A stretch of DNA of 34,213 bases from assembly GCA_043809585.1 (NCBI GenBank), contig JBDROZ010000004.1, positions 1-34,213 of the forward strand, in the 5' to 3' direction. The notes beneath the pieces are model-generated. The model saw only the letters and a program-made list of their open reading frames with translations, searched no databases and was not told where the DNA came from. Below, one piece after another: positions 206 through 32,086 of the stretch. The translations under genes and the position numbers were made by a program. Source of the DNA: Candidatus Eiseniibacteriota bacterium (GTDB taxonomy: Bacteria; Orphanbacterota; Orphanbacteria; Orphanbacterales; Orphanbacteraceae). How positions within the stretch are numbered: the stretch's first letter is position 1; the number at the start of each line of letters is the position of its first letter.

Positions 206-1294
206 TCACACATATTCGATTGCGTGTTCTTCACCGCGCAACACCCGGAGCGCGCCTTCGGCGAGCGCCTGCAGCTCGTCCTCTCCGGGGAAAGCGTGGA
301 CCGGGGCGATCCAGTCGATGCGTTCCTTCAGGGCGCTCACCACCGCATCTTCGTGGACCATCCCCCCCGTGAGGAGAATCCCGTTCACCTTCCCCCGGAG
401 CACTGTCGCGTACGCTCCGATCTCCTTCCCGATCTGGTAGATCATGGCGTCGAAGACGAGCTTCGCCTTCTCGTCGCCGTTTCGGATGCGGCCCAGCACC
501 GCCGGGAGGTCCTTCGTCCCGAGATAGGAAACCATCCCCCCCCGGCGGAAGATCCGGTCCCCCATCTCCTTTCTAGTCACCTCCCCCGAGAGACAGAGAT
601 CGATCAGCTTCATCACCGGGACCGTCCCCGAGCGCTCCGTCGAGAACGCCCCTTCGTCCCGGGAGTTCGTCACATCCACCATCCGGCCGTTCTCGTGGGC
701 CGAGACCGAGGTGCCGCTCCCGAGATGGGCGATGACCAGCCGGAGCTCGGCGTACGGCCGCCCCGTCTCACGGGCGAACCGCTTCGCCACCGCCTTCGTG
801 TTGAGGGCGTGGGAGAGGCACTCCCGGTCGAGACCGGCGAGGCCCGAGAGCCGAGCCACCGGCTCCCACTCGTCGACGCTCACCGGGTCGACGATGAACG
901 CCCGCGCCCCCTTCGACCCGGCGGCGAGATCCGCCGCCATCGGCGCGCCGAGGTTCGACGCGTGGTCCCCCCGCCTCGCCTCCCGGAGATCGGCGAGCAT
1001 CCGGTCGTTCACCTCGAAGGTACCGCTCGGAAGGGGTTTCAACAGGCCGCCCCGGCCGACGACGGCGTCGAGACCGGCGGCGGGGAGGCCCTTCGCATCG
1101 AGGGCGGCCCGGACCCGTTCCATCCGGAAGTCGAGCTGATCCGTCAGGGGCCGGCCGTCGTAGGGGACGAGTTCCTCTTCCGAATGCCGGACCGTCTCCT
1201 GAAAGAGAGGAGTGTCGTTCTCGAAGGCGCCGAACTTGGTCGACGTCGATCCGGGGTTCAGGGCGACGACGCGGATGAGCCGTTCGTCACTCAT
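206..1294 (-). CDS. buk: Butyrate kinase (acetate/butyrate kinase family), 362 aa
   Basis: Motifs NPGSTSTK, GRGGLLKP, HASNLGA, VDPVSVDE, HALNxKAV, HLGxGxSVSAH, LTGG, PGEDELQALAEGALRVL; overlaps ptb stop by 8 nt. Confidence 0.95.
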   Translation of the reverse strand: MSDERLIRVVALNPGSTSTKFGAFENDTPLFQETVRHSEEELVPYDGRPLTDQLDFRMERVRAALDAKGLPAAGLDAVVGRGGLLKPLPSGTFEVNDRMLADLREARRGDHASNLGAPMAADLAAGSKGARAFIVDPVSVDEWEPVARLSGLAGLDRECLSHALNTKAVAKRFARETGRPYAELRLVIAHLGSGTSVSAHENGRMVDVTNSRDEGAFSTERSGTVPVMKLIDLCLSGEVTRKEMGDRIFRRGGMVSYLGTKDLPAVLGRIRNGDEKAKLVFDAMIYQIGKEIGAYATVLRGKVNGILLTGGMVHEDAVVSALKERIDWIAPVHAFPGEDELQALAEGALRVLRGEEHAIEYV

Positions 1295-2207
1295 GGACGA
1301 TCACCCCCATCGCGACGGCGTTCCTCTTGTCCTCGGCACTCTCCACCCGCGACGGGATCAGCACCGGCACCTTCGCGCCCATCACCACGTGCCCGCACGC
1401 CGAACCGCCGAGGTACTTCACCGCCTTGCCCAGGATGTTCCCCGCCTCGATGTTCGGCACCACCATCACGTCCGCCCGGCCCGCCACGGGTGAGGTGATC
1501 CCCTTCGCCTCCGCCGCCGAGACGAGCAGTGCGTTGTCGAGGGCGAGAGGTCCGTACACCTCGCACTCGCCGAACTCCCCCCGCTCCCCCATCTCCGTGA
1601 GCGCCCTCGCGTCGACCGTGGAGGGGACCTTCTCCGACACCGCTTCGGTCGCGCTCATGATCGCGATCTTCGGCCGGGCGAAGCCGAGGGCATGGAAGAC
1701 CTTGACCGCGTTCATCACGATCTGCTTCTTCTCCTCCAGGGTGGGGAGCACGTTCAACCCGCCGTCGGTGGTTCCCACGAAACGGCGCTCGCCGCTCGTC
1801 ATGTCCTCGTAGATGAGAACGTCCGAGAGCACCCGGCCGGTCCGGAGCCCCTTCTCTCTGTCGAGGACCGCCTTCAGGAGCTGGTCCGTGCGGAGATGAC
1901 CCTTGAGAATGACATGGGCATCCCCCCCGCGCGCGAGTTCCACGGCGGCGGCCGCCGCCCGCTCCCAATCTTCGGCGGGCACGACCCGCGCCTTCTCCGA
2001 GAGCTCGGTCATCCCGAGATCGTCCATCTTCGCCCGGATCTTCCCCTCGTCGCCGAGGAGCAGCGCCTCCGCGATTCCTTCGCAGACGGCCATCGAAATG
2101 GCCGAGAGGGCGACGTCATCGTCCGCCACCACGACGGCCACTCTCTTCGGCCCCGTGGCGCGGGCCCGGGCGACCAGTTCGTCGAAACTCTTCAGGGGAA
2201 CGGCCAT
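1287..2207 (-). CDS. ptb: Phosphate butyryltransferase / phosphate acyltransferase (PTA_PTB family), 306 aa
   Basis: Motifs LKGHLRTDQLLKAVLD, GLRTGRVLS, TDGGLNVLP, GPLALDNA, VAGRADVMVVPNIEAGNILGK, GAKVPVLIPSR; RBS-like GGAAGG upstream; coupled to buk. Confidence 0.92.
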   Translation of the reverse strand: MAVPLKSFDELVARARATGPKRVAVVVADDDVALSAISMAVCEGIAEALLLGDEGKIRAKMDDLGMTELSEKARVVPAEDWERAAAAAVELARGGDAHVILKGHLRTDQLLKAVLDREKGLRTGRVLSDVLIYEDMTSGERRFVGTTDGGLNVLPTLEEKKQIVMNAVKVFHALGFARPKIAIMSATEAVSEKVPSTVDARALTEMGERGEFGECEVYGPLALDNALLVSAAEAKGITSPVAGRADVMVVPNIEAGNILGKAVKYLGGSACGHVVMGAKVPVLIPSRVESAEDKRNAVAMGVIVHE

Positions 2208-2306
2208 GGGTTCCTTCCCTCTCGTCCGCGATCCGTCCTTTCCCGAGACGAAGCACCGGGGATGAACCTCGTTTCGGGGACCCGCAGGTGAGGGCGCCGC
2301 GCGACC

Positions 2307-11676: not shown

Positions 11677-12645
11677 TGTCATCCCCGCGAAGCATGCCCC
11701 CGCGAAGGCGGGGCGCAGGGATCCATCCGGCTCCCCCCCCCGTTCGTCCTGAGTGCCGCGGCCGAAGGCCGCGGTGTATCGAAGCCTGTCCTGAGCCTGT
11801 CGAAGGGGGCGGGCGGGGGAGAACGCGGGAATCAGGTGCGTGATTCCGAAGGCGAAGCCGTAAGTACCTGGCACCTGATTTCCAGGTATTCTGGATGCGG
11901 CGGGACGGGGACCGGCATCGGGAGGGGGCGGGGCATAACCGGGGAGGTGTTGTCGGCCTCCGCACCGCCGGTTCGCGAGGCCGGAGGGCTGTAGGCATCA
12001 TCCTCCGCGCTTCCGCGCTCCGGATGCTTCCTCGCCCACCCACCTCCGCCTGCGGCTCCGGTGGGTACCCGGGCTCGGTCGCCGCAGCACGACGAGCGTC
12101 CTAGCCTGCCCCATCCCCCTCCCTCCTCCGATCCCCCGCCCCACCGGAATCATGCCCCCCCGTTCGTCCTGAATAGGCCGTAACCCTCTCATTGTGCCCC
12201 TAACCCCCGTTCGTCCTGAGTGCCGCGGCCGAAGGCCGCGGTGTATCGAAGGATGAACCGGGGATAACGTGCTCGCACGGGCGGGTCCTGACCGCTCCTG
12301 TCCGCTGCGATGCTCGCCAGTCGCACGTTTGTACTCAGTGGTCCTTGTTGCGTGAACCGCACCTCTCGTCTTCGCTGATGCACTGATGCTCGGGATCGGG
12401 TGCTTGGTGGCTGCGCTTCTCGCGGACCCCTGTCGCGGCCACCCGCCCGTCGCTATGTATGATCAGCCAGGACTCCGCCCGAAGGAGGGGAAACGGATTC
12501 AGCGGAGAAGGCGAAGCTTCGCCCCGCCATCCCATTGTATTGTCATCCCGGCGCAGGGGATCCAGGAAATCTGATTCCCCGATTCGCCACCCGTCCCAAC
12601 CGCTGCTATCCTGAGAGTACCCGGCGGAAGCCGGCGGGGAATTCC
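11677..12645. repeat. Intergenic mosaic of several palindromic REP-like repeat families
   Basis: 48-nt direct repeat CCCCGTTCGTCCTGAGTGCCGCGGCCGAAGGCCGCGGTGTATCGAAG at about 11737-11784 and 12205-12251, with a partial third copy at about 12155-12172. TGTCATCCC...GGATCCA units at about 11677-11725 and 12541-12564. GTCCTGAGCCTGTCGAAGG at about 11788-11806. GGAATCAGGTGC/GCACCTGATT inverted repeat at about 11828-11883. Confidence 0.85.
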
Positions 12646-12677
12646 GTTCGAGAGGGTCGTCTGGAAACGGAGCGGTC

Positions 12678-13226
12678 ATGCGTGCGTGGATTCTGCCCTC
12701 CGTGCTCTTGGTGATGTGTCTTGCCCCCTCTCTTCCGGCGGAGGAGTACTCGGTCGAACTCGATCTCGACGGGGTGATCGGCAACGGACCGGACATCGAA
12801 AGCGCCCTGGTCAGCGATCTCGTCTACGTCGATGTCTGGGTGTTCGGGCCCGGTCCCCTTTTCGCGGTCGGGTTGACTATCTGCAACTTGGACGGTGCGC
12901 TGGAATACGAAGGGGCCGCGGGCAACCTCCCTCCGGGTTGGATTATGACCCCCCTGTTGCCGCCGGGGATCTGTTTCGACATCGGGGCGATTGATATCTC
13001 CTTCACCTCACCGGTTGCGCTGCCGTGGCTGTTCTTCACCGTGACCTATCACGCCGCGGTGGACGATGCCTACGGCCACATCATCGTCGACCTGGAACAA
13101 TCCGGATGGATGGATTCCGGCTTTCAGAGCGGGGTGTTTTCCGATTTCGTCGGCGCCGGCGTGCGGATCGGTGCCACGAGCACCGACAGGAGCAGTTGGG
13201 GTTCGGTCAAGAGTCTTTTCCGCTGA
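12678..13226 (+). CDS. Small secreted protein of unknown function with C-terminal SSWGSVKSLFR tail, 182 aa
   Basis: GGAG RBS, signal peptide MRAWILPSVLLVMCLAPSLPA, beta-rich mature region, terminal TDRSSWGSVKSLFR. Confidence 0.8.
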   Translation: MRAWILPSVLLVMCLAPSLPAEEYSVELDLDGVIGNGPDIESALVSDLVYVDVWVFGPGPLFAVGLTICNLDGALEYEGAAGNLPPGWIMTPLLPPGICFDIGAIDISFTSPVALPWLFFTVTYHAAVDDAYGHIIVDLEQSGWMDSGFQSGVFSDFVGAGVRIGATSTDRSSWGSVKSLFR

Positions 13227-13257
13227 CCCCTACTCCTCCCCATTCCTCTCCTCCCTC

Positions 13258-13741
13258 TCGTAGCGGTGGCCGTGGGTCGCCATCACCCGAACGATCCGGT
13301 GCTTTAGGCGGACCACGTGGGACTGAACGGCGAGTCTCGACCGGACCAACTGAAGGATCGCTTCGTACTCCGGATCGGGCACGGTCACCGGAACAAGGTT
13401 CCCGGCGCGGTAGTGCCGGACCAGGTGGACCCCGTCGAGACGACCCGTCTTCCGCCGGTCCCCGGGCTTGCGGGGGATGAGGCTCGGGGCGATGACCTCG
13501 CAGAAAAGACCGTCCTGCTCCAACCGGCGCTGAAGCACGTACCCCGCGCTCGATGCCTCATAACAGCCGCGGGGGTTGCCCTCCTGGCTGAGGCGACGGA
13601 ACATCCGTCGAACGGCGTTGAGATCCCCCGGTAATCGCTCGATCCGGGGATCGTGCCCCCGTCCGATAAGACGGCGGCGGTAACGGAGTCCTGGTGGACA
13701 TCCATCCCCACCCACACGGTCTCTGTGGTACTCTGGATCAT
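13258..13741 (-). pseudogene. IS110-family transposase (DEDD RuvC-like N-terminal domain), frameshifted and truncated
   Basis: ATG 13741 gives VWVGMDVHQDSVTAAVL. After a frameshift at the G5 run (13656-13660) it continues CYEASSAGY.L.R.L...G..C.VIAPSLIPRKPGDRRKTGRLDG..L.R..RAG.L..V.VP...EA...LVR.R. Third catalytic Asp is Gly; C-terminal transposase domain absent. Confidence 0.9.
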
Positions 13742-13828
13742 GGCTGGGCGCCTCTCGGGTTGTGTGCACTAGTCTTCGCGGACTAACCCACGATAAGCCG
13801 ATGTGCCCAGCCGTTCCATGTTGTCTAG
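13258..13828 (-). mobile_element. IS110-family insertion sequence remnant (left end plus 5' part of tnp)
   Basis: Transposase remnant plus a structured non-coding end of about 87 nt starting CTAGACAACATGGAAC; the exact element boundary is inferred. Confidence 0.7.
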
Positions 13829-13855
13829 TCGACGAGGCAGCGTCGCGATTGCTTC

Positions 13856-16800
13856 CTAGTCGTCACGCCTTTGGATCTCGCGCTCGATCGCCATCCAGGT
13901 GATCAGGTGGATATCCTCTCTGACGATAGGAGGCAGTGGTTCGGGCGGGTGGAACGGCTCCGTCCCGATACGCTCGACCTCCTCGACGAGGTAGCGCGCA
14001 TGCTCGCCGCTCGTTGGGAACTCCTGCTCCCACGCCAGCCGCAAGAGATTCTCCTCCCGGCGAGGCCACGGTGACTCGACCGCGTCGAGGCATCGATGCA
14101 GCCGATCCTGCGAGATGTCCCCCGCCGGGTTCGCACGCAGGAACGAGGCGACATCGCGGTTGAGTTTCCGGATCTTCGGTTGCAGGTTGGCCGGATCCGT
14201 CTCAAAGGTCCACGCATCGTAGATGTCTTGGCGCGCCCTGACCCACGATTCATAGGCGCCTGTCGCCATCTCCTCACTGAGAAGCCGTGGCATGCTCTCA
14301 TCACACTCCAGGAGCCGCAGGCATGTTCCCAGCTCTCCGACGATCTCCCCCTCGGTCTCCCGGGGCACGAAACGAAGGTAGATCCGCCCGCCCACCGTCG
14401 CGCAGAAGAGGTGCCCGGGCCACTCGCCCTTTCGCATCCCTGAGCCCGTGCGCCAGGGCAGATCACGGATCGCATCGCCATACTTCTCCAACGCCCGCCG
14501 CAACTCCTGCCGATACTCTTCCCCCGTCTGAGCGGCCCCTTCGGTTCCACCTGCCTCGTAGATCGAAGCGTCACCGCGGTGGAGTCTCTCGATTTCCTCG
14601 CGCGTATCGGCGAAGGACTGCTCGCCGGTCGCTCCTTGCTCGATCGGAGCCTCCTCGACTCCGACCGAGGCTGCCGCCTGTGCGAGCTTGCGGCGCACCC
14701 GGCCCTCGAGATTGAGCAGTGCCTCCAGCTGAGCGTCCGGAAAGAATGTGCGAACGAAAACACTCCTGTGCGGACTTCCGATCCGGTCCACGCGGCCGTG
14801 GCGTTGCACGAGACGCATGGGATTCCAGGGCAAGTCGTAGTTCACGACGTTCCGGCACTGCTGGAGGTTCATCCCCTCGGCGAGAACATCCGTGCACAAG
14901 AGGAGATCGAAGCGATCCTCGGCGTCCGGGGGCAGGGCCCCCGTCGAGATCGGGGCGAATCCGTGCAGTGCCTTCTCACGCGCGATACCGCCACGCACCT
15001 CGGCACCGCTCACGGAGGCGACGCGGCCACGGTAGGCAGTGAGGCGTGGGTCGCGCTCGATGGCCGGGGCGAGCTGGTTCTCCACCCAGTCGATCGTGTC
15101 TTCGTAGTGCGAAAACACAAGCACTTTGCGCTTCTGGCGCGCGTCATCTTCATCCATCGCCTCGTCGCCTGCCTGCTTGGCGATTATGGCCAGCGTTTCG
15201 ACGAGCGCCGCAAGCTTGGGGTCGCCTTCGGGCTGTACCTTGGCCGCTTCGGTCCCCATTTCCCGGAGGAGCGCCAGGTCCGATCGTACGTCGGCCGCCA
15301 GTCGCGCGACGTCGTAGGCCGATGCGTCTTCGGCGTGCTCGCTCCCCTCGAGGAGCTCCTCGATGTCTCCCTCGTCCTCGGCGGCCGACAGTTCCCGGAA
15401 GAACTCTTTGCGTACGACGCGCCCTCGTGAGATCGCATCGAGAAAGGCCTCGTGCGCTCGGATCATCCGCCCAACGGTCCGACGGAACGCCTCCACCGAA
15501 GACTCGAAACGCTTGAGAAGTGCCGACCGCAGCAACCCGACGAGCGCCGCGTCCTCGCCGGCATCGCCCCCGCCCGCCGGATAGCGCTCGGGCTGATAGC
15601 GCGCCATGCGGAGGAGCGGGTGGCCGCATTCCGGCATGAGGATTTCCTCGAGGCGCGCGAAGAACCCGGGAAGAACCGCGTCGAGGTTGTAGCCGATTGA
15701 CGAGGCGATCGGTCTCGGAAAACGGATCGGGACCATCCGCCCGTCCGGTCCGCGGATCTGGTCACTCGCGTAGTACTTCTTGATGAAGCGCCGTGTCCGC
15801 TTGACGGTGGTTGCATCGATGATCGGGTAGAGCAGATCGGGGCTCAGGTTGAACGGATCCGCGCGCATGCCGTGCTCGAACCGCTCGCGGATCGAAAGTA
15901 CCCCGCGGTCGGAGAGCCAGGCGTCTTGCTTCATGAAGAAACGGAGCAAATGATAGAGATCCCAGAGCGAGTTATTGACCGGCGTTGCCGTCAACAGCAG
16001 CAGATCCCGCCGCTTACCAGCAAGCAGACGTCTGAGGACGGCAGCGCGCTTGGCGGTATCGGGGTTCCGGTAGTTGTGCGCCTCGTCCACGACGACCAGC
16101 GCGTAGTCTTCGAGCGGATTATGGAGATGCCGCTGATTCCCTCCGAGCTGGGCGTCGTTCGCCAGCTCCTCGTACGAAAGGCACTCCACCATGAGCTGAA
16201 AATCATTCAGGAACCGTTCCCATGTGGTGTCGCGCAGGGAGGCCGGGCAGACGAGGAGAACCCGCTGCCGGCGGTCCCGGTAGTCGCGGATGATCTCCCC
16301 GGCGGTGTACGTCTTCCCGAGACCCACTCCGTCGGCGATCATCACGCCGCCGTACTTCGCGAGGATCTTCCGCGCCCGCCAGACACCGTGCTTCTGGAAG
16401 GTCGTGATCGGGATCGTGCCGGTTTCCTTCTCCTCTTCCTCCAGCTCCTCATGGTAGAGGTGCCAGAGTATCTTGAGGTAGACCAAGTACGGAGGGATCT
16501 CGATGAGCAGCTCTTCATAGATCGCCGCGAGGTCGAAGGGAGCCGCTTCGCCCCATAGCGACTCGAACCACTCCTCGACCCGCCCGACGAGGGGGTCCTG
16601 GTGGTGGCCGAGCACCAACTCGAGATTCGTCTGGAGTCCCGCGCGGGTGAGGTTCGCGGACCCCGCGAGGACTCCGCGCTCCCCGCCTCGGAAGACGAAC
16701 GCCTTGGCGTGCAGGAAGTGCCCTTCGTAGCGGCGTACCTCGATCCGGCCGGAGCGCAGGAACTCGAGTAAGCTCCGGATCGCGCCGTCCTCGGCGAGAT

Positions 16801-17182
16801 CGAAGGGCAAGAGATCCCGGTCACGGCGCAGCCCCTGCTCGAGCCGTGAGAGCCCTTGCGTCACGCGGCGGTGCGTAAACTCGGGTTCCGTCGGATCATA
16901 GGGCGTGCGCCGCGGGAGCATCGACTCCGGCGTCGGGTCCGCGCCGAGCAACAGCCGGATTCGGGGAACTTGCCGCGCCTCACTCGCGATAAGCTCTAAG
17001 CCCTGCGGATTAAAGTAGCAGGTCGCCACGCACAGCTCCGCGGGAGTTCGGCCCTCTTGCCGCAGCGCGGCAAGGTGGGTCGTGATCGCCCGCGCGAGAG
17101 TGTTCCCATCACGGTTGTCTACGAAGACGGGCCTGACGGCCCCGGTACCGCGCTCGACGTCACTCATGTTCTTCTCGTTCAC
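13856..17182 (-). CDS. PLD-family nuclease domain fused to SNF2/SF2 helicase, about 1108 aa
   Basis: N-terminal ATCYFN...LLLG...FLHAKAFVF...GSANLT..GL..N.EL (single HxK PLD motif). Helicase motifs ADGVGLGKT, VVVDEAHNYRN, LLTATPVNNS, KVLVFS...DT, TDVLAEGMNLQ, NYDLPWNPMRLVQRHGRVDRIGS. Start GTG 17182 or ATG 17167. Confidence 0.92.
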   Translation of the reverse strand: MNEKNMSDVERGTGAVRPVFVDNRDGNTLARAITTHLAALRQEGRTPAELCVATCYFNPQGLELIASEARQVPRIRLLLGADPTPESMLPRRTPYDPTEPEFTHRRVTQGLSRLEQGLRRDRDLLPFDLAEDGAIRSLLEFLRSGRIEVRRYEGHFLHAKAFVFRGGERGVLAGSANLTRAGLQTNLELVLGHHQDPLVGRVEEWFESLWGEAAPFDLAAIYEELLIEIPPYLVYLKILWHLYHEELEEEEKETGTIPITTFQKHGVWRARKILAKYGGVMIADGVGLGKTYTAGEIIRDYRDRRQRVLLVCPASLRDTTWERFLNDFQLMVECLSYEELANDAQLGGNQRHLHNPLEDYALVVVDEAHNYRNPDTAKRAAVLRRLLAGKRRDLLLLTATPVNNSLWDLYHLLRFFMKQDAWLSDRGVLSIRERFEHGMRADPFNLSPDLLYPIIDATTVKRTRRFIKKYYASDQIRGPDGRMVPIRFPRPIASSIGYNLDAVLPGFFARLEEILMPECGHPLLRMARYQPERYPAGGGDAGEDAALVGLLRSALLKRFESSVEAFRRTVGRMIRAHEAFLDAISRGRVVRKEFFRELSAAEDEGDIEELLEGSEHAEDASAYDVARLAADVRSDLALLREMGTEAAKVQPEGDPKLAALVETLAIIAKQAGDEAMDEDDARQKRKVLVFSHYEDTIDWVENQLAPAIERDPRLTAYRGRVASVSGAEVRGGIAREKALHGFAPISTGALPPDAEDRFDLLLCTDVLAEGMNLQQCRNVVNYDLPWNPMRLVQRHGRVDRIGSPHRSVFVRTFFPDAQLEALLNLEGRVRRKLAQAAASVGVEEAPIEQGATGEQSFADTREEIERLHRGDASIYEAGGTEGAAQTGEEYRQELRRALEKYGDAIRDLPWRTGSGMRKGEWPGHLFCATVGGRIYLRFVPRETEGEIVGELGTCLRLLECDESMPRLLSEEMATGAYESWVRARQDIYDAWTFETDPANLQPKIRKLNRDVASFLRANPAGDISQDRLHRCLDAVESPWPRREENLLRLAWEQEFPTSGEHARYLVEEVERIGTEPFHPPEPLPPIVREDIHLITWMAIEREIQRRDD

Positions 17183-17284
17183 TTTCCGGCCGGCTTCCCG
17201 GCACGGACATGCGCCGTGGTCGAGCCGTTTGAGCTGTTCGTGAGCCCTTTCCCCGGCGAGCTTCCGGGGTGACTTCCGGGGCCC

Positions 17285-17779
17285 TCATTTCCGCGTCTGC
17301 AGAACGAAGCGAGCCCGCTCCCGGCGCAGCATCTCGAATGGCGTCATGCACTTGATCCCGAGGCCGATGCACGGCTCAGGGATCTTGATCTTCTTTGTGG
17401 AGGTTGAAGCCTTCTCGTGCGTCACGACGGTGTGCCCGTGAGCGAGCGCATGAGCCACGAGGTAGTAGTCGGCAACTTGGAGGAAGGTGTTGACGGCAGC
17501 CGCCTCGTAGCGCTGCTCGGTAACCCAGGTGCTGACCTTGGGGAGAGCTGACAGAATCGCGGCGTCAGGCTTCAGAAAGAAGCTCGATCCGCGATCCGTC
17601 GCCCAGTCTGACAGCTCGTCGCCACCCGCCTCGATCTCATCGCCGACTCGCTCGATGCTGAAGACCTCGCCAGCGGTGTTCCGCGCCACCAGCCAATCCC
17701 AGAAGGCCGGGCAAAAGTCGAGGCCGTAGTGCAGGTTCTTGGCCTGGATGAAGACGTTGGCATCGAGCAGGTACGGCAT
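17285..17779 (-). CDS. DUF4411 family PIN-like domain protein, 164 aa
   Basis: YLLDANVFIQAKNLHY..DFCPAFWDWL, ADYYLVAHA, VVTHE, KIKIPEPC; start overlaps the upstream stop (TGATG). Confidence 0.9.
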   Translation of the reverse strand: MPYLLDANVFIQAKNLHYGLDFCPAFWDWLVARNTAGEVFSIERVGDEIEAGGDELSDWATDRGSSFFLKPDAAILSALPKVSTWVTEQRYEAAAVNTFLQVADYYLVAHALAHGHTVVTHEKASTSTKKIKIPEPCIGLGIKCMTPFEMLRRERARFVLQTRK

Positions 17780-18924
17780 CAGGCAAGTACCCCCAGGCTA
17801 CGCCCAAGCTCCTGGAACGTGCTGACCTTCGAAAACCCGAGCATGCGGAAAGCATCACGATGGAGGGTCTGGCCTTCGAGCGTGCTCACGACCAAGGCAC
17901 GCGCGAACCGCTTGCTGACGCGCGCCGCCTGCGTCAGATAGAAGTCGCCCCCGCTACCTCGTGGGAGGCGGCGCAGCCGTTCTACCTCCTGGTCGTACGC
18001 CCTCCACAGCTCCTCGCGCGTGAGGCCCCCGGCGTCATGGATCCGACGCAGCACCACCAGCGTGCTGACCTTGAAGCGGCGCGCGAGGCGGCCGACCTCC
18101 GCCCACAGCTCGGAGCTCTCGTCGTACTCGTCACGCAGGACGGCAAGGGGCATCAATAGCTCCGCCGCCACCCGATTGCACCAGCGCTCGACCTCATGAT
18201 CGGGGATGCGCCCAGCCTGCGCGTCGGAGACGGCGGACTGGCCGAGCCAGATGTGGGCCAGCTCGTGCGCCAGGGTGAACATCTGCGCCGCCTTAGTGTC
18301 CGCGCCGTTGATGAAAACCAGTGGAGCCAGTCCGTCGGCCATCGCGAAGCCGCGGAACTCATCAGGGTCGAAATGCCGGCGGTTGTTGTTGAGCACAACG
18401 CCACTGCACATGACTAGAATGCCGAGAGCGTCGGCCTGCTCGATGAACCGGCGCAGGGCGTCGGTCCAGGTGGGCATCCGGCGGCGCTCCTCGAGGTCGA
18501 AGCCGAGCATCTGCCTCATGTTCGCCGCGGTGGCCTTCACATCGTTTATCGGGCGGGTGGAGCTGACGAACCCGAGCGGCTCCTCGCCCATGGACCGCGC
18601 GAAGTCCCTGTACCACTCCTGGCGCTGTTGGCAGACGTAGATGGTGTCGAGCAGGTCCGGGCTCGGGTGACCGAAGTACACGTTCTCCACCGTGCGGAAG
18701 TCCGGGATCGGTACCTGCTCGACCGGCGGAGCGGGTAGGAACAGAAATCCGACCGGCGTGTAGGTGGCCTTCGCGAAGGTCTCGAGCTGCTTCAGCGTCG
18801 GCCGCGCTTCGCTCCGCTCCCAGGCTTCCAGCTTCGGGAACCGACGCGCGAGCATGGCAATACTGAATCCGGCGCGCTCGCGCGCCCATCGCAGCATCTC
18901 GGGGCGAACCTCGACCCGGATCAT
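17779..18924 (-). CDS. XRE-type HTH fused to ImmA/IrrE-family zinc metallopeptidase, 381 aa
   Basis: N-terminal LRWARERAG...WE....PTLKQLE.FAK HTH; IPDFRT linker; EFRGFA, FTLAHELAH (HExxH), ERWCNRVAAELLMP; GGAGGGAG RBS. Confidence 0.92.
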   Translation of the reverse strand: MIRVEVRPEMLRWARERAGFSIAMLARRFPKLEAWERSEARPTLKQLETFAKATYTPVGFLFLPAPPVEQVPIPDFRTVENVYFGHPSPDLLDTIYVCQQRQEWYRDFARSMGEEPLGFVSSTRPINDVKATAANMRQMLGFDLEERRRMPTWTDALRRFIEQADALGILVMCSGVVLNNNRRHFDPDEFRGFAMADGLAPLVFINGADTKAAQMFTLAHELAHIWLGQSAVSDAQAGRIPDHEVERWCNRVAAELLMPLAVLRDEYDESSELWAEVGRLARRFKVSTLVVLRRIHDAGGLTREELWRAYDQEVERLRRLPRGSGGDFYLTQAARVSKRFARALVVSTLEGQTLHRDAFRMLGFSKVSTFQELGRSLGVLA

Positions 18925-19126
18925 ACGCTCCCTCCGCTCGATCCTCTTGCGAGTCTACACCTTCGAGCGCCCAAAGTGAATGGTCCGCTCGCACGGGCGC
19001 GCCTGGCGAGAGAGAGGAAGTTACGAGTTCGATGCTTCCTGTCCGGAAGCCGACCGTGATCGCGAACCACGGAAAGCGCGAATGCGTGGTATGTTGTGGA
19101 GATTCACAATTCACGGGCAACGCAGC

Positions 19127-19510
19127 TCAGGTCGAGGTTCCCCGGAACAGTACCTCGACCCCCACCGGCCCTCCGGCCGTGAAGTGATGAGAGCGCATGT
19201 CTTTGTATGGACCCGCGTAGAAGAAGCCGCCCCCCGATGTGGTGGCGAGCAAGTAGGAATATGCCTTCGCTGTCGAGCCGTCGTACCGAACCGCTACCAT
19301 CTCCCCGACGACCGAGGACTCTGCTCGCGCGGGAAACGTGGTCATGTCCGCGCTCACGAAGGCCGTCACGAGCCCGGGAATCTCATGCAGTTGGGACGGA
19401 AGTGAGCTGGTTCCCAGAACCTGGATGACGCCTGCCGGCGAACAGGCAGCGGTGAGCACTTCGCCTTCCGCCTTCCGCACCCGATGCCACTTCTTGCGCG
19501 ACTCCCTCAT
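19127..19510 (-). CDS. Hypothetical protein, 127 aa
   Basis: ATG 10 nt after the methyltransferase stop, with AGGAG RBS overlapping that stop; co-oriented in the island. No recognisable family. Confidence 0.55.
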   Translation of the reverse strand: MRESRKKWHRVRKAEGEVLTAACSPAGVIQVLGTSSLPSQLHEIPGLVTAFVSADMTTFPARAESSVVGEMVAVRYDGSTAKAYSYLLATTSGGGFFYAGPYKDMRSHHFTAGGPVGVEVLFRGTST

Positions 19511-19520
19511 GATCGTGCTC

Positions 19521-22500
19521 CTATCGATCGATTCTACTCCGCCAAGCCTGGAGGTGCTTCAGCGTCGCGCGTAGGCGTTCTTCGTGGTCCCAGCCCTCGT
19601 GAAACGTCTCGAAGATGTGGACGAGGTGCTTCTCGGTGAGGCCGTAGAGGTGGGCGACGACGGCGTCGAGTTCGTGGATCATGTCCCCCTTCTCGTCTGG
19701 CGCGAGCGGGCCGCAGGCGACACCGATCTCCTCCGCCCAGCCGGCGAACCGTTCGTCGGGGCAGGCGAGGCGACCGGACAGCTCGATGGCGCGGCGAAGG
19801 AGGGGGTGGCCGGCGGGAGGGCGAGGGACGGGGAATGTGTTGACGAGGTAGAACTTCAAGCCTGTCTCGACAAAACGACGAGCGTACCAATCTAGCGGCA
19901 GCGAACGAAGTACGCCGTAGAGATAGATTTGGTTCGAGATGGATCCCCCACGCGCAAATAGGAAGTAGGGAGCCTTATCCGTCAGGAATACCCTCGGGGG
20001 GACAACAGACGTGACGACTGTCCTCGAGTCGGTAGCACGCGCTACATCGCGGAACGCGACTCGGCATGCCAGCCAAGGAGAGCTCTTGGGATCAGTTGCC
20101 CAGCTTCGAGGAAACTCAGCATAGGCGGATCCCTTGATCTGGGCGCGACGCGCGTGCTCAAGCCATCGGCTCATCACTTCAGGATCGGCATGTCCGTAGA
20201 CCTCTCCCGTCTCGCAGCGATCCAGATCGAAGGACTCGCCCTTGAAGACGGGCCAGGCAGTCGGGGACACCTCCCCAGGCGCAAGCATGAACTCCTTGCA
20301 CTTCTTCGAGTGCGCCTCGCCATACGGTCTCGCGCGCCACAACTTGCCGTCGTCGAGGTCCAGGCGTGGCGAGTTGCGGAGCTGCGCGAAGACCTCGACC
20401 GACTCGTCCGTGGGAAGGAGCGGCAGCGAGGCCGTGTCGTTCCAGGTCCGGATCTCCTCGCCGTAGAAGACCACCGGTTCGCCAAGCATGCCGCCGTTGT
20501 AGCGGTCGAGGCTCGGGTAGGGCCCCCGCAGGGCCACCGGCGTCCGCTCGGGCTTGCCTCGAGCGAGGGCGATGAGGCCGATGGTGTAGCGGTGCTCCGC
20601 CTCGTCAAAGACCCACCCCTTCGTGTTCAAGAGCGTTGTGACGTCCACACCCTCGGAACGTGCGAAGACCTCTTGCCGGAACTCGGTCGAGCCCTTCGCC
20701 GCGAGCACCGAGCGGGGCAGCACGACGCCGATCCGTCCGCCATCCTGGCAGACCAGGTTCCAGAAGCGCCAGCAGAAGGCCTTGTAGAGGTCCGGGTCGC
20801 CGGTCCCCATGCCGGCGTAGGTGCCGGCCGTGAGCGCGCGCCGGAGCGCCTCGGCCTCGGCCAGCTCACGCTCCAGCACGGCCACCAAGTCCGGGCGATG
20901 GTCGCGCAGCCGTTGCCGTTCGATTAGGGAACGTTCCTGAGAGACTCCTCTGAGCCCCGGCGAATGCCGTGCCCAGAATGCGACCTCGTGAACGGTCGGT
21001 GCCTTCCACGGAGGATTCCCCACGATCACGTCAAACCCCGGCCGCTCGCGCAGGAAGACCTCGGGGAAGGCGATCGGGAAGTGAAAGGCATGAAGACCTT
21101 CGAGCCGCTTCTCTGCGGCCTTGTGCTCCCGAGATCCCGCGATCGATTCGCGCACTCTATCCTAATCGGAGAAGTCGATGCCGACCCGCTCCCCCGTGAT
21201 CCGGGCCGCGGTAACAAGGTCGCAGACGGCGGCCGCGGGGGCAACCGCCAAGAGCGCGTCTTCCCGTGCCCTTCGCGCCCGGGTTAAGTCGGTGATGGTC
21301 AAGTCCGCCAGTTTCGCGAGCCGAGCGAGCGGCCGGGCCGCATCCCCAAGGAGGCGCTCGGTGAGACCGGTCCACATGGATATCATCGACCGCTTGTCGA
21401 CCTCACCGATCTCCACTCTGACAAACTCCTCGACCTCTTTCAGTTGCCCGATGCCGACGAGTGAGTTACCCCGCACGAGACAATGGTCGAGAAGGGAAAG
21501 CGGGAGCCCCGGTACGAAAGTATGAATCCAGATCGAAAGACGTGCGAGTTGGACGGCCGTAAGATTCACATCCACGCCGTAGATGCACCGCCGCGCAATG
21601 AGACGGCGGAGGAGCTGGGTGTCCTCGATCTCGACCTGATCGGCGAGCGGCCCCAGCGCCTCGAACGCCGCGCCGCGAAGCGCCGCCAGCTCGGCCGCGA
21701 CGCCAGGAAGGCGGCGACGAGAGAGATACCCCGTGAGAGCGCGCTCGACCCGGTCGATCGCGGCGACCAGGAAGTGCCCCGAGCCCATGGCCAGATCCGC
21801 AATGCGGAAGTCGAAGAAGCTCTCCCCCGCCTCTTCTTCGCCGAGCGCATCAAGCCGCGCCATGTGCTCCATGAGCGCGGGTTCGAGCGATCGCTCCAGC
21901 AAGTGCTCCACGGCGAAGTGCTTGGTGAAGTACGATCCCGTGGACTTGCGTAAACCCGAAGCATCGTGCAGGTACACCTCGCCCCGGGCCACGGCAGGCT
22001 CCTCGCCCTTCTTCTTGCACGGACGGAAGGCACCGCTCTTGTCCACCGCGAGGTCGGTCTCGGCAACCGATAGCTCGCTCTCGAGGAGTCCTTCGTAGAT
22101 CGTCCCGAACTCGCGCACGCCGAGGCTCCGGAAGTCCACGGGACCCAAACCTTCGGCACCCTCGACGAGGAGAAGGCCCGCCAGCGCCGGGCCAAAGACC
22201 GTGTTCGGCAGCGTGATCCCGGAGAGGAGCGCACCCGCCGCGGAGACCTCCCGCTCTTCCGAGAAGAGCCCGCCGTCGTAGCCCGGCATGCCCCACTCCC
22301 GGTTGCCGCGATCCACCGCACGCCAGAGGCGCGCCACCTCGCCCCAGAGCGTGTCCCCGGCATCGAACAGGGCGCCGCTCCGGGCCAGCTCGGCCAGTTC
22401 CTGCGCCTTCGTCTTGAGGGAACGGCGCCGGTAGAGACCGTTCCAGCGGTAGGGCAAGAGGTCCTTGTCCTCGGCGTAGGCGATAAAGAGGAGCCGAAAG

Positions 22501-23600
22501 AGCACGGTGAGCGCCATCTCGTAGGTGTCGGCGAGATCCTGCGCGGTGGGCTTCTTCAGGCCGCGGGCCGCGACGATCCCCTGGGCAAGCCGCGGCACGA
22601 CCGACTGGTAGACGCGCTCGCGAAGCCTTTCGGCGAGATTGCCGGCGAAACGTCCCGAGGCGTCGAGGATCTGCTCGAGGCTGCCGCCCGCGGCGAGCGC
22701 CTCGGCCGAGCAGAGAAGCCAGAGGTAGGCGGCGTCGGCGTCGGGCAGGAGCCCGGCGTGGCACTCGACGCAGGTTTCCGTCCGACCGCGCCGGCCGACC
22801 CCCAAGCCGACTCGCACGGGGTGAACGCGTACTTTCGCGCCGTGCTGCACGACGACCCACGGCAACCCCTCCCGGTCGGCGACGGCGAGCGCGTAACTGA
22901 TCGGGGAAAGCCCCGAGAATCGCTCGCCTGCGAGATCCGGCGATTCGTCCCGCGTGAGGAGCACCGCGACGGCGACCTTGCGGTCCCCCGTACGCAGAAT
23001 CGAGGTTGCGCCGTCGTGCCGCTCGATGCGGAAGCCGAGCGCGCGTAGGAGTTCGTCGCCGCGTTTGGCGAGGGCTCCGCGCGCCTTGCGCCCTGCGTCG
23101 GCCCAATCGGCGCGCCCGCGTGCCCCGACGCGCAGCTCGTGAGTGGCGAGAAAGCCCTCGTTACGGAGTCCCGCGAGATCCGATTCGAGCGACGGCAACA
23201 CGTCGCGCAAGGCCCGGAGCGCCGCGTGCCGATCCGGTTGCTCGAGCGCCTCGCGGCAGATGCGTCCGACCTGGCCGCGGTCGAGCCCAATGTATGCAGG
23301 CGGATCGCCGCCCGAAGGGCCGCAAAGCGAAGCCCGATCCGCATGGAGGACGACCAACAGGAGCGGTGCGGCTCGCCCGGCGTGACGAGCTTTCCAGGCC
23401 GAACGGAGCGCCGTCGCTTTCGGTGGGGCCGCGCTCGTGGCGACCAGAAGCTCGAGCGGTGACGCGCCCTGGCCGAGGGCCAACCCTCGGGCGCTGAAGG
23501 CGGCCCCCGCCGGCAGGGAGACCGGTCGAAGCGGAACGCCCTCGAAAGAAGGCGCATCCGCGCCGGATGGGATGGTGTCTTCAGACTTCTTGCGCGGCAT
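19521..23600 (-). pseudogene. Eco57I/type IIG-like N6-adenine DNA methyltransferase with C-terminal TRD, about 1359 codons, interrupted by one in-frame TAG at 21162-21164 (ORFs 21162-23600 and 19521-21155)
   Basis: LFRLLFIAYAED, GYDGGLF, VDFRSLGVREFGTIYEGLLE, RKSTGSYFT, motif I DLAMGSGHFL, IYGVD, motif IV VIVGNPPW, DLYKAFCWR, FRDVARATDSRT. Both ORFs share one frame: ...IDFSD*DRVRESI... Confidence 0.85.
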
Positions 23601-23812
23601 CCGGATCCTTCAGGTTTCTTGCACGCCGACGATCGACGCCGGAACGTGCCGTGCATCTTCTCACGTCCCGCCCCCGGCCACGAGAGGAGAGTCACCGATT
23701 CCCGCGTTCACTTCTCTTCTTGCGCAGGGGCGGCGGCCACCGGCAAGGCATCCCGTCGTTCGACCGGGTTCGCAGCCGTGCCCCCCTCACGGAAAAGGCA
23801 CGAACCTTGAGG

Positions 23813-23842
23813 ATTATACATGCAGGGAGTCGCCGATGTCAC
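23813..23842 (-). promoter_or_regulatory. Putative sigma70 promoter driving the methyltransferase/helicase island
   Basis: Minus strand GTGACA (23842-23837), 18-nt spacer, perfect TATAAT (23818-23813). Confidence 0.6.
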
Positions 23843-23891
23843 GGGATCGACTTCGCGTCGGCCTCCCGCCATCCTCGAGGAGGGGGGCCTC

Positions 23892-25028
23892 CTACGCCGA
23901 CAGCTTCCTCTCCTCCCTCTCGTACCGGATACCGTGGCGCTCGAGGTCCGCGAGGATCCGGCGGAAGCACTCTTCGTCCTTGCCGACCTCTTCGGGGGCG
24001 TTCACGCCCGGCTTCGCGAAGGTGCCGTCCAGGAGGAGCCTGGCCACGGCGGTGCACGTGTATCCCGTGGTGCGGGCCATGCTCGAGACCTTCCTCACGT
24101 CGTCCCGCCGGTCGAAGAGGTTGTACTCGATCGTCTTCTTCTCCCCTTTCTCCGAGCCGGTGACCCGGATCCGCATCACGGTGATGTCCGCCTCGTCGGG
24201 CCCGAGCCGCCAGAGGGGGAAGAGGAGCTTGGCCGTCACGTCGATGGGACGGACCATCACGCCGTTCACCTCGACCGGCTCCTTCCGGAAGAACCCCGAG
24301 TCGAGAAGAACCCGCATGTACTCGTAATGGCCCGGGTAGCGCATGGTCTTCTCCACCATGTTCGGGATGGGGAGCGTCACGAGCAGGGTGCGGAGGCCGT
24401 CGGTGTTCGACGCCTCGAGGGTGCCGATCGGGTCGATCTCGACGAACTCCGACTCGCTGAGGGCGGGGCGGATGACGATCTTGCCGTTCTCCACGATCCG
24501 GGCGGGGCGTGTGTACTCCTCCACCACGTCGATCGGCGAGAAGGGCGCCTTGTACTGATGGGGCCAGCTCCGCTTCACCGGGAGCCCCCCGACGAGACAC
24601 TCGAAGGAGTCCACCTTCATCCGCTCATGATGGTAGCCGGCGATGATGTTGCTCATGCCGGGGGCGACGCCGCAGTCCATCACGACCGTGACGCCCTTCT
24701 CCTTCGCGAGGGGGTCGAGATCGAAGGGGTTCTCGTCGAAGAAGGAGATGTCCACCGCCGGGCGGCCCGCCTCGATCACCGATCGGAGCGTGCGAAAACC
24801 GAGAAAGCCGGGGACCGCCCCGATCACGAGGTCCGCGTCTTTCACGGCCTTCCCGACCGCGCCCTCCGCGGAGAGGTCCGCCTCCCGCGCCTCCACGCCG
24901 TGGGCCTTCGCGATCTCCCGGAGCCTTGCCCCGTCCCGGTCGACCACCGTCACCCGGGCGTCGCCGGCGAGGTCCGCCGCGATCGCGCTCCCCACCATGC
25001 CCGCGCCGAGCACCGTCACCTTCTTCAT
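23892..25028 (-). CDS. Saccharopine dehydrogenase family NAD(P)-dependent oxidoreductase (lysine 6-dehydrogenase-like), about 378 aa
   Basis: Start ATG 25028 with GGAGG RBS; Rossmann VLGAGMVG; AVPGFLG, VDISF, DCGVAPGMSN, VGGLP, NTDGLRTL, EKTMRYPGH, SMARTTGY. Confidence 0.88.
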   Translation of the reverse strand: MKKVTVLGAGMVGSAIAADLAGDARVTVVDRDGARLREIAKAHGVEAREADLSAEGAVGKAVKDADLVIGAVPGFLGFRTLRSVIEAGRPAVDISFFDENPFDLDPLAKEKGVTVVMDCGVAPGMSNIIAGYHHERMKVDSFECLVGGLPVKRSWPHQYKAPFSPIDVVEEYTRPARIVENGKIVIRPALSESEFVEIDPIGTLEASNTDGLRTLLVTLPIPNMVEKTMRYPGHYEYMRVLLDSGFFRKEPVEVNGVMVRPIDVTAKLLFPLWRLGPDEADITVMRIRVTGSEKGEKKTIEYNLFDRRDDVRKVSSMARTTGYTCTAVARLLLDGTFAKPGVNAPEEVGKDEECFRRILADLERHGIRYEREERKLSA

Positions 25029-30531: not shown

Positions 30532-30610
30532 CCGGGAGAGCGCCGTCACGAACGATCAGTAAAATCGAAGCCGGGCCTCGGGGGCCGGGCGTCATATCGA
30601 GGATGGAAGA

Positions 30611-32086
30611 ATGAACAGCAAAGCCGCCACGGAATCGATGGTCCCGAACTTCGTCGGAGGCGCTCCGGTCCGAAGCGCCTCGGACCGTTTCCTTCCCGTC
30701 ACCGATCCCTCCACGGGGGAGACGATCGCGAAGGTCCCCCTCTCGACGAAAAAGGAACTGGACGAAGCGGTCCGGAGGGCCGCGGAGGCCCAGAAGAGCT
30801 GGGGCGTACAGTCGGTCAAGGACCGGGTGCAGGTCCTCTTCCGCCTGAAGGCCCTCATCGAGAAGAACCAGGACGAACTGATCCGGACCATCGTCAGGGA
30901 GAACGGGAAGACCGCCGAGGAGGCGGTGGGGAGCGTGCTCCGCGCCGTGGAGTGCGTCGAGTTCGCCTCCTCCCTCCCCCAGATCGCGCCGGGCGGCGTC
31001 CTCGAAGTGACCCGCGGGATCGAGTGCAGGATGATGCGCGAGCCGGTCGGTGTCGTGGCGGGCATCACCCCCTTCAACTTCCCCTTCATGGTCCCCCTCT
31101 GGATGATCCCCCTCGCCGTCGGGTGCGGGAACGCGTTCATCCTGAAACCTTCGGAGCAGACCCCCCTCTCGGCGACGCACATCGCGAACCTCTTGAACGA
31201 CGCGGGCCTCCCCGCCGGGCTCTTCTCGGTGGTGAACGGCGACCGGGAGATCGTCGAGGGAATCTGCGATCACCCGGCGATCAAGGCGGTCGGCTTCGTC
31301 GGGTCGAGCAAGGTGGCGCGCCTCGTCCACGAGAGGTGCGCGGCGGCGGGCAAGAAGGTGCGGGCCCTCGGGGGGGCGAAGAACCACCTCGTGGTGGTGC
31401 CCGACGCGGACCCGGAGATGACCGCGACGAACGTGGTCGCCTAGGCGACGGGGTGCACGGGCCAGCGGTGCATGGCGGCGAGCGTCCTCCTCGCCGTGGG
31501 GAACGTGGAGCCCATCCTCGAGAAGATCCGGGAGAAGATGGCCTCCCTCCGGGGGGGGAAGGAGCTCGGCCCCGTGATCAGCAGGCAGGCCCTCGAGCGG
31601 ATCGCCGGGTACATGGAGCGGGCGGAGAAGGGGGGCGCGAAGGTCACGGTGGACGGCCGGAAGAACGTGGCCGAGGGCGCCCACCCCGGCGGTCACTGGA
31701 TCGGCGCCTGCGTCATCGACCACGCGAAGCCGGACCACGAGGCGGCATGCGACGAGATCTTCGGCCCCACGCTCACCATCATCCGGTGCAAGACCCTGGA
31801 CGAGGCGATCGAGATCGAGAACGCCAATCCTTACGGCAACGCGGCGGCGATCTACACCTCCTCCGGCAAGGCGGCCCAACATTTCACGAGCCGGGCGTCG
31901 GCGGGAATGATCGGCGTGAACATCGGCGTCCCCGTCCCCCGGGAGCCGTTCGCCTTCGGCGGGTGGAACCTCTCCCGGTTCGGCGACGGCGACATCACCG
32001 GGCAGAGCGCCATCGACTTCTGGACGAACGCGAAGAAGATCACGACGAAATGGTCGGACGAGTTCCGTAGAGATTGGATGTCCTAG
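30611..32086 (+). pseudogene. mmsA: CoA-acylating (methyl)malonate-semialdehyde dehydrogenase, about 491 codons, interrupted by in-frame TAG at 31442-31444
   Basis: GITPFNFPFMVPLW, LKPSEQTP, FVGSS, LGGAKNH; then NVVA*ATGCTGQRCMAASV in one frame; EIFGP, NPYGNAAAIYT, GMIGVNIGVPVP, FGGW..S.FGD. Confidence 0.88.

Follow-up and report, generated by a model that had tools for sequence, protein, structure and literature searches.

Which of the five open reading frames (ORFs) that lie co-oriented on the minus strand between positions 13856 and 23600 of a Candidatus Eiseniibacteriota contig belong together, and what might they do? The contig (JBDROZ010000004.1, 34,213 bp; assembly GCA_043809585.1, 4.24 Mb, about 67% G+C, 97% complete) was analysed in full and is called the window here. 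An original prediction, made from the letters of the window, had taken the five ORFs as a single undescribed defence unit of a giant adenine methylase, an orphan ORF, a peptidase with a PIN-like nuclease and a phospholipase D (PLD)-Snf2 helicase. We found all five ORFs at the predicted places (13856-17182, 17285-17779, 17779-18924, 19127-19510 and 19521-23600, the last with an in-frame TAG at 21162-21164). Pfam also recovered the predicted domains, namely PLDc_2, SNF2-rel_dom and Helicase_C in the helicase, DUF4411 in the PIN-like protein, Peptidase_M78 in the peptidase and an Eco57I-type methylase. The unit that is conserved among related loci, as described below, is the methylase together with the PLD-helicase, two genes and not five.

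A conserved two-gene core

Fourteen helicase homologues were aligned, and the alignment was used to fetch 78 loci from contigs representing one genome per species. According to their record titles, these loci come from Planctomycetota, Gemmatimonadota, Acidobacteriota, Alpha-, Beta-, Gamma- and Deltaproteobacteria and Eisenbacteria, as well as from Rokubacteria, Zixibacteria, Latescibacterota, Spirochaetia and Rhodothermales. At 60 of the 78 loci at least 4300 nt were available upstream of the helicase, which made them testable. Both halves of the methylase were found upstream on the same strand in 59 of these 60 loci and the C-terminal half alone in the remaining one, and no testable locus was without it. 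A methylase piece was also seen in eight of twelve loci with 300-4299 nt upstream, the other four being too short to judge; in one locus with a short upstream region (L061), an IrrE/PIN pair lies upstream of the helicase. The gene-neighbourhood comparison that had been suggested as a check on the prediction thus found that the methylase and helicase homologues do co-occur.

In 33 of the 60 testable loci the two core genes adjoin or overlap each other, and the stop of one and the start of the other often overlap in related loci. In the other 27 they are separated by an insert of 0.37-7.3 kb. When the 1051 ORFs of the 78 loci were clustered, the helicase cluster was represented in 76 loci and the methylase cluster in 66. 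No third conserved gene was found in this clustering, and the next-largest cluster was present in 12 loci. The claim of a five-gene unit was therefore not borne out, since only the methylase and the helicase are conserved together, the IrrE/PIN pair being interchangeable cargo and the orphan ORF unconserved.

The two genes also appear to have travelled together. Identity to the window helicase was closely correlated with identity of the N-terminal part of the methylase (Pearson r 0.95, n = 59), whereas the correlation with its C-terminal part was low (r 0.21). In two example loci, the N-terminal and C-terminal parts are 69% and 28% identical (L007) and 80% and 43% identical (L043), respectively. 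Joint inheritance of the two genes, with exchange of the DNA-reading part, would give just this pattern. The pair is also plasmid-borne in Mycobacterium gallinarum and in an archaeon, Halorubrum lacusprofundi, where RefSeq names the products 'hypothetical protein' and 'helicase-related protein'. Its distribution is patchy, with the C-terminal domain of the helicase found in one of eight genomes of the same family and in none of 52 other genomes searched. In total, this domain family comprises 990 cluster representatives at E <= 0.001, 207 of which reach E <= 1e-30, and its full-length members are about 1080-1290 residues long.

The two proteins and their predicted contact

The PLD(HKD)-Swi2/Snf2 nuclease-helicase (13856..17182, 1108 residues; this and all core features below are on the minus strand) is composed of a PLD domain (PLDc_2, residues 84-210, 16553-16933), a double-strand DNA motor (SNF2-rel_dom and Helicase_C, residues ~255-825) and a C-terminal docking domain (residues 826-1108, 13859-14707). 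Residues H158, K160, G174, S175 and N177, which form the HxK...GSxN motif, are invariant in the 14 helicase sequences, as are G289-K290-T291 of Walker A, D366-E367-A368-H369 (DEAH) and Q793-R800 of motif VI. We propose that the protein is a translocating nuclease. Each chain carries one HKD motif. In PLD nucleases with a single HKD motif, such as BfiI and SauUSI, two chains make one active site, and two chains would thus be needed for one active site here as well. The best profile matches to solved structures were RapA (E 2e-17) and, for the PLD part, SauUSI (7clg, E 8.3e-6), while the best PADLOC model was 'HKD+Snf2' (PDLC01075), which matched partially with 183 bits. No recognisable modified-base reader was seen in the helicase by Pfam or structure comparison. 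Its C-terminal 283 residues were modelled as a small beta unit followed by a four-helix bundle (predicted local distance difference test score, pLDDT, 78.7). The inactive restriction-endonuclease fold of RapA was not among the VIA-align matches for this domain, which does not by itself exclude such a fold.

The methylase gene (19521..23600; 1359 codons, including one in-frame TAG) encodes a gamma-class N6-adenine DNA methyltransferase, judging by PADLOC, Pfam and its motifs, and its product is the proposed specificity and modification subunit. The PADLOC model 'REase_MTase_IIG' (PDLC03620, 1378 long) matched at positions 41-799 (E 9.7e-187) and 817-1359 (E 1.5e-89), and the Pfam family Eco57I (PF07669) matched with E 7e-9. 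Motif I, ADxAMGSGHFL (ADLAMGSGHFL in the window), and the GNPPW motif are conserved in at least 90% of 47 methylase homologues.

Residues 1-530 of the methylase were modelled (pLDDT 87.5), and structure comparison divided the model into three domains, with Z values that are middling on the scale of the comparison tool itself. The first is an N-terminal alpha/beta domain (residues ~20-150, 23151..23543), the predicted docking site for the helicase. Its residues ~26-130 weakly resemble DHHA1/C-Ala domains (Z 6.6, root-mean-square deviation (rmsd) 3.4, 93 aligned), and a Foldseek search of the PDB with the N-terminal model gave no match at E <= 0.001. The second is a PD-(D/E)xK-like domain with a restriction-endonuclease fold (residues ~179-314, 22659..23066), which matched the nuclease fragment of HsdR (3h1t, Z 7.8, rmsd 3.2, 100 aligned), DrdV (Z 6.7, rmsd 14.8, 234 aligned) and BpuSI (Z 6.0, rmsd 4.7, 119 aligned). 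The catalytic triad D196...[DE]206-x-K208 of this domain is intact in just 9 of 48 methylase sequences, the window's copy included, which leaves the PLD domain as the conserved nuclease; judging from the alignment, the methylase's own nuclease looks dispensable for the family as a whole. The third is a helical domain (residues ~319-526, 22023..22646) like the N-terminal domain of HsdM and PglX, with matches to PglX (8c45, Z 9.7, rmsd 4.7, 161 aligned), HsdM (2okc, Z 9.1) and MmeI (Z 7.8). The C-terminal target-recognition part (residues ~901-1359, 19524..20900) is the one whose identity is uncoupled from that of the helicase.

We then modelled the C-terminal domain of the helicase together with methylase residues 18-530, in three runs and with three controls. 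The three runs scored 0.71, 0.73 and 0.73 for the contact, against 0.00 for the best control. At least 77% of contacts were shared between the runs, and the pLDDT of the partners was at least 79. Of 157 solved complexes 116 passed the mark used for the score, as did 2 of 215 mismatched pairs; this is a rough calibration only, since the alignments were self-made. On the helicase the interface falls within residues 992-1085 and includes T995, D996, P997, Q1001, P1002, A1012, R1016 and E1036; on the methylase it falls within residues 25-132 and includes E50, R72, R76, A77, H125 and R129. Among the methylase residues R72 does not vary at all, and conservation is at least 96% at R76 and E50. Furthermore, interface columns are more conserved than the other columns both in the helicase domain (0.72 versus 0.59) and in the methylase domain (0.66 versus 0.56). 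These models predict that the N-terminal domain of the methylase docks on the C-terminal domain of the helicase.

A proposed mechanism and its rivals

The closest tested relative of the two-gene module is MANTIS (Gao_RL/Gao_29). In the available portion of its report, MANTIS consists of the AAA+ ATPase MtsA, MtsB, the methyltransferase MtsC and the PLD-helicase MtsD, a PLD-SF2 (superfamily 2) helicase-nuclease that was solved as a dimer with one PLD site; asymmetric 6-bp sites become hemimethylated, and restriction is best when the sites are inverted (10.64898/2026.09.23.753747). The accessible text of a second source lists DUF499, an N6-methylase, HKD-Snf2 and DUF3780 as the type-2 BREX-related set (PMC12839542). 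Like MANTIS, the module described here combines a sequence-reading N6-adenine methylase with an SF2/Snf2 motor to which an HKD/PLD nuclease is fused N-terminally, and the two are likely to share the logic of asymmetric-site hemimethylation, methylase-directed restriction and a dimeric nuclease-motor. In contrast to MANTIS, no DUF499 was found here in the window or the genome (a control search matched in two genomes), and the 78 loci share no third conserved gene. A search for DUF3780 gave no match in the genome, although the control search was equally silent, and Pfam found none among the window ORFs. Compared by description, the window methylase is also much larger than MtsC, with N-terminal docking and restriction-endonuclease-like domains. 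Finally, direct docking of methylase and nuclease is predicted here, while MANTIS, in the portion of its report referred to above, is without a stable MtsD-MtsABC complex.

We favour the explanation that the two proteins make up a restriction-modification-like defence module that depends on ATP, and that the defence cargo between their genes is unrelated to it; we put the probability of this explanation at roughly 0.68. Linkage, conserved motifs, the predicted interface and the analogy to MANTIS and SauUSI all point to such a mechanism. The two-component restriction-like pair at the heart of the original prediction agrees with this, given the linkage in 59 of 60 testable loci plus one partial locus, the co-inheritance and the predicted docking. 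The methylase would read a short asymmetric site and methylate host DNA. Its N-terminal docking domain would hold or load the nuclease-motor via the helical C-terminal domain of the helicase, and the motor would track along DNA at unmethylated sites. After the examples of MtsD and SauUSI, two nuclease-motors may then build one cutting PLD site, most readily between inverted sites. Direct docking would take the place of an AAA+ loader of the MtsA/DUF499 kind. A more specific version sees the module as a loader-free minimal cousin of MANTIS, in which direct docking replaces both the AAA+ ATPase and the co-regulator and the gene junction serves as a standing insertion slot for co-expressed defence cargo; this version is tentative, and we would give it somewhat less than an even chance.

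Several points weigh against the favoured explanation. Methylation, cleavage and protection are all inferred for the family, and the contact between the two proteins expresses a model's confidence and is not a measurement. MANTIS itself gave no stable MtsD-MtsABC interaction by size-exclusion chromatography, and cleavage by MtsD was not reconstituted, as far as the accessible part of that report goes (10.64898/2026.09.23.753747). The helicase C-terminal domain is without a clear known fold (VIA-align, best Z 6.5). The window methylase has the D196/D206/K208 triad, so a nuclease activity of its own is possible. Since the methylase is broken here, the window copy says nothing on function; a GTG (21155) lies two codons past the TAG, and a split methylase could still be made.

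The best-surviving rival, which we consider unlikely, treats the methylase as a self-sufficient Type IIG/IIL restriction-modification enzyme, whose single chain would also do the cutting by means of its PD-(D/E)xK domain, and the PLD-helicase as a separate enzyme that happens to lie next to it, such as a SauUSI-like modification-dependent nuclease. The PADLOC Type IIG model matches the methylase end to end, the domain at residues 179-314 has a fold like the HsdR, DrdV and BpuSI nucleases and lies at the usual Type IIG position, the window copy retains D196, D206 and K208, and the PLD region of the helicase matches SauUSI. Indeed, nuclease fold, helical domain, gamma-class adenine methylase and C-terminal recognition part follow one another in the same order as in the Type IIG/IIL enzymes BpuSI, MmeI and DrdV. 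However, just 9 of 48 family members retain the nuclease triad, and the window family has an extra N-terminal domain. The helicase is linked to the methylase in 59 of 60 loci plus the partial one, often with overlapping genes; its identity follows that of the methylase N-terminal part, and docking is predicted between domains that are specific to the family. A SauUSI-like role of the neighbour also sits poorly with a helicase in which no modified-base reader was recognised. Because it is always linked to a PLD-Snf2 helicase, we conclude that the family is probably not a single-chain Type IIG system.

A slightly weaker rival regards all five ORFs as one system, in which the IrrE protease and the PIN protein form an obligatory protease-gated backup arm. 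Between the core genes of the window lie a helix-turn-helix (HTH)-ImmA/IrrE protein with an M78 zinc peptidase domain (17779..18924, 381 residues, RmrA-like; Peptidase_M78 E 2e-18, HELAH motif) and a DUF4411 PIN-like nuclease (17285..17779, 164 residues; DUF4411 E 2.8e-56 over the full profile), and the start of the PIN gene overlaps the stop of the peptidase gene at 17779. PADLOC matched the peptidase protein to RmrA (63.6 bits) and CapP (53.9 bits). Its N-terminal HTH had no Pfam match and is assigned from the RmrA model, which spans residues 9-299. From these matches the peptidase protein is predicted to be the antitoxin or regulator of the cargo pair and the DUF4411 PIN protein the toxin. 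We take the pair to be akin to RosmerTA, since RmrA models of PADLOC match the peptidase protein; it differs from RosmerTA in that no PADLOC RmrT model matches the PIN protein.

In favour of the five-ORF system, the window ORFs are co-oriented behind one promoter-like site, and both IrrE/PIN genes occupy the same place and orientation in 13 of the 78 loci, with one of them alone in two more. Embedded backup effectors are moreover recurrent in BREX-related loci, according to the text available for PMC12839542. Nevertheless, nothing lies between the core genes in 33 of 60 loci, and in other loci the same gap holds unrelated cargo, which includes SIR2_2 with HerA/DUF87, Shedu SduA_C, Schlafen/AlbA_2 with HATPase_c_4, DUF4062 with HATPase_c_4 and Fic-like_C, ABC-type ATPases, a DEAD helicase and RhuM. 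HTH-DUF955 fusions with a downstream DUF4411.1 gene, exactly the make-up of the cargo pair, were predicted elsewhere to be free-standing three-component toxin-antitoxin modules, as far as the part of that study at hand shows (PMC5499597). We therefore propose that the XRE-ImmA/IrrE and DUF4411 PIN pair is an optional and probably independent toxin-antitoxin cargo. A protease-gated toxin embedded as a backup of the unit, as first envisaged, fits poorly with the presence of IrrE and/or PIN genes in just 15 of the 78 loci.

The remaining ORF of the five, the orphan (19127..19510, 127 residues), lies in a spacer of about 600 bp, has no match in Pfam, PADLOC or NCBIfam and has no counterpart in the 78 related loci, which also speaks against a five-ORF system. 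Its Atlas model has a pLDDT of 0.35, and no other copy of the spacer was found by blastn in the genome and the loci. This ORF may not be a gene.

As observations on the gap itself, known defence modules are present there at L043 5027-8550, L018 5391-7622 and L070 8479-9885, and also in loci L004, L008, L013 and L050. Several inserts encode proteins without a family match, for example at L015 6482-8425 and L056 7715-9958.

A third rival, which we regard as very improbable, is that the locus is the leftover of a larger system, such as class 1 DISARM, a MANTIS/BREX-related type 2 system or ARMADA, that needs partners elsewhere. The set of class 1 DISARM is the Snf2 helicase DrmD, the adenine methylase DrmMI, DrmA, DrmB/DUF1998 and the PLD protein DrmC. 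As in class 1 DISARM and ARMADA II (ArmA-D), at least as far as the accessible parts of the sources describe them (10.1101/2025.09.22.677730, PMC12458937), the locus unites a large adenine methylase with a Snf2 helicase and a PLD nuclease. In PADLOC, the models of DrmMI (E 3.9e-55) and DrmD (E 2e-45) were matched in part, and DUF1998/MZB proteins are encoded on two other contigs of the genome (C44 and C91). On the other hand, the NCBIfam equivalog models of DrmD scored far below their cut-offs (NF038317, 185.1 bits versus 610; NF038318, 113.4 versus 950), the PLD domain is fused to the Snf2 protein in the window family, and a DrmA/YprA helicase or DUF1998 protein is neither present in the locus nor conserved in the 78 loci. 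DUF1998, DUF499, PglZ, BrxC, HsdS and HsdR had no Pfam or PADLOC match among the large ORFs of the window, and a search of the 97%-complete genome gave no DUF499 either. The PglX models matched weakly (PADLOC E 8.7e-7; NCBIfam 20.8 bits versus a cut-off of 500), and the likeness to Type I systems is at the level of folds only (the helical domain of HsdM, and the HsdR nuclease at residues 179-314). The original prediction had likewise set the locus apart from DISARM, BREX and Type I systems, and the absence of DrmA/DrmB, PglZ/BrxC and HsdS/HsdR from the window agrees with it. Nor is any third gene conserved across the 78 loci in many phyla.

That the pair is no defence at all and serves as an epigenetic regulator or a DNA repair or remodelling device has an equally small chance: RapA is the best solved-structure match, Snf2 proteins such as RapA have housekeeping roles and orphan adenine methylases can regulate genes, but the patchy distribution among relatives, the plasmid-borne pairs, the swapping of the DNA-reading part between relatives, the defence genes inserted between the core genes, the invariant nuclease motif and the signs of acquisition in the island all argue against it.

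Returning to the two-protein defence module, we found that related pairings have been noted before. In the accessible text of one study, orf33/orf34 of Lactococcus lactis pLd8 are a methylase classed as 'Type IIG' in REBASE, in which no clear nuclease is seen, and a PLD-SNF2 helicase proposed to act in restriction (PMC6098607). A survey of programmed inversions, in its available part, has two loci where a Type II restriction-modification coding sequence adjoins one for a PLD and SNF helicase (PMC9881135). Going by these partial descriptions and not by sequence comparison, the methylases of both sources differ from that of the window in being Cj0031-like or TaqI_C-bearing, and shorter. Calling the system 'undescribed' was consequently too strong, since PADLOC's Type IIG model covers the methylase, the accessible parts of these two sources note the pairing and the motor is of the MANTIS/Gao_RL kind. 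No published name or test for the loader-free two-gene family was found in the literature searched, which lay outside the supplementary tables of PMC12839542, PMC9881135 and the MANTIS preprint.

There is also a likeness to Type ISP (LlaGI, LlaBIII) and Type III enzymes, in which a motor-driven nuclease is coupled to an asymmetric-site methylase, a shared orientation logic being inferred; LlaBIII is weakly like the helical domain of the methylase (Z 5.3). The module differs from these enzymes in having two chains, a PLD nuclease instead of an Mrr or PD-(D/E)xK one, and a motor of the Snf2 type instead of the HsdR/Res type.

A separate observation concerns Haloferax volcanii pHV4 (L083 13369-18958), on which an N-6 DNA methylase gene of 3267 bp, a putative Type IIG gene that is HVO_A0079 by size and place, is directly followed by a gene for a 777-residue 'phospholipase D-like domain-containing protein' that ends beside an IS4 transposase. 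This PLD protein is 25% identical to the window helicase over residues 21-770. We rejected pHV4 as a member of the family, as its methylase has no match to that of the window and its PLD protein is only distantly related. The unmatched methylase indicates that the architecture recurs with different families, and the pHV4 PLD protein may be the truncated nuclease-motor of an analogous pair.

The state of this copy and its surroundings

The in-frame TAG of the window methylase (21162..21164, codon 813) lies upstream of motif IV (NPPW) and of the target-recognition part, so the methylase should be dead. Tryptophan occupies this column in 29 of 47 homologues, which makes TGG to TAG the simplest change. 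An assembly error was considered and rejected: the site is covered without differences by short contigs of two public runs of one study (X1 and X3) at a depth of 2-5, which gives weak support that the TAG is real. Going by the gene sequence, the window copy of the module is most likely inactive. The other island genes are intact and single-copy in the genome, and an intact nuclease gene beside a broken methylase fits a model where restriction needs the methylase for target recognition.

We also considered recoding of TAG, as a second window gene, for an aldehyde dehydrogenase (Aldedh), likewise contains an in-frame TAG. We rejected it as the main reading, because a stop interrupts only one of the genome's six Aldedh genes, most TAGs are ordinary ends of ORFs and the methylase TAG falls on a tryptophan column. 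The median in-frame continuation past the stop is 56 codons for TAG versus 43 for TGA across the genome. The aldehyde dehydrogenase gene in question (30563-32086, plus strand) belongs to the pyrimidine/beta-alanine catabolic cluster of the window and has its in-frame TAG at 31442-31444; its two halves match Pfam positions 4-258 and 262-461, and paralogues have alanine at the TAG column. In the genome, TAG terminates 766 of 1779 long coding-like ORFs, unusually many for 67% G+C, and coding-like sequence in the same frame directly follows the stop in 5.0% of ORFs ending in TAG, 6.6% in TAA and 1.4% in TGA. This TAG/TAA pattern could come from a few tens of genes broken by nonsense changes, from a degree of read-through, or simply from a smaller number of same-frame neighbours behind TGA.

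The island sits, as had been predicted, between secretome and housekeeping genes: by Pfam, the left flank encodes secreted subtilase/FlgD_ig proteins, and the right flank saccharopine dehydrogenase together with enzymes of pyrimidine catabolism. The claim of less biased codon usage also held, with a G+C content at third codon positions (GC3) of 0.76-0.85 for the island genes versus 0.86-0.95 for the right flank. At the left island edge we located the IS110 remnant of the original prediction, a truncated IS110-family transposase fragment (13233..13769, minus strand; DEDD_Tnp_IS110, E 4e-5), but its match is weak (23.8 bits, below the Pfam cut-off of 29), and no second copy of the fragment was found in the genome. 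The low GC3 of the island and the adjacent remnant together fit acquired DNA. The near-consensus promoter likewise stood in part. A site GTGACA-18 nt-TATAAT (23813..23842, minus strand), about 210 nt upstream of the methylase start, matches 11 of 12 consensus positions; however, region 13500-24100 holds one such site and shuffles average 0.9, so that the count, resting on a consensus match only, is not above chance.

Between the subtilase gene and the island, the window at ~11730-12580 is made up of short dispersed repeats (~50-330 bp, 70-100% identical), further copies of which lie on dozens of contigs in this genome, often near contig ends. The neighbouring ORF 12615-13226 (plus strand, ~200 residues) has a hydrophobic N-terminus and no Pfam match, and in-frame matching stretches with 25-46% identity occur on about ten other contigs of the genome. 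Elsewhere in the window, an acetate-kinase-like ORF (206-2306, minus strand) adjoins a phosphate acetyl/butyryl transferase gene; it matches Pfam Acetate_kinase only over profile positions 178-339 (E 3e-17, weak for the family).

For this genome the message is the smaller one, that its copy is broken. Collectively, this copy belongs to a widespread two-gene restriction-like module, unnamed in the literature we found, which occurs in many bacterial phyla and in haloarchaea. In annotation pipelines the family appears as a 'Type IIG' enzyme of one protein, with an unexplained helicase next to it, and if the explanation favoured here is true, this label misses a two-protein system. MANTIS, in the accessible part of its report, needs two extra proteins to load its methylase (10.64898/2026.09.23.753747). 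A two-protein relative with a predicted stable contact could ease the study of the step at which unmodified DNA passes from a methylase to a PLD-Snf2 nuclease, and the gap between the core genes may be a useful place for finding new defence genes.

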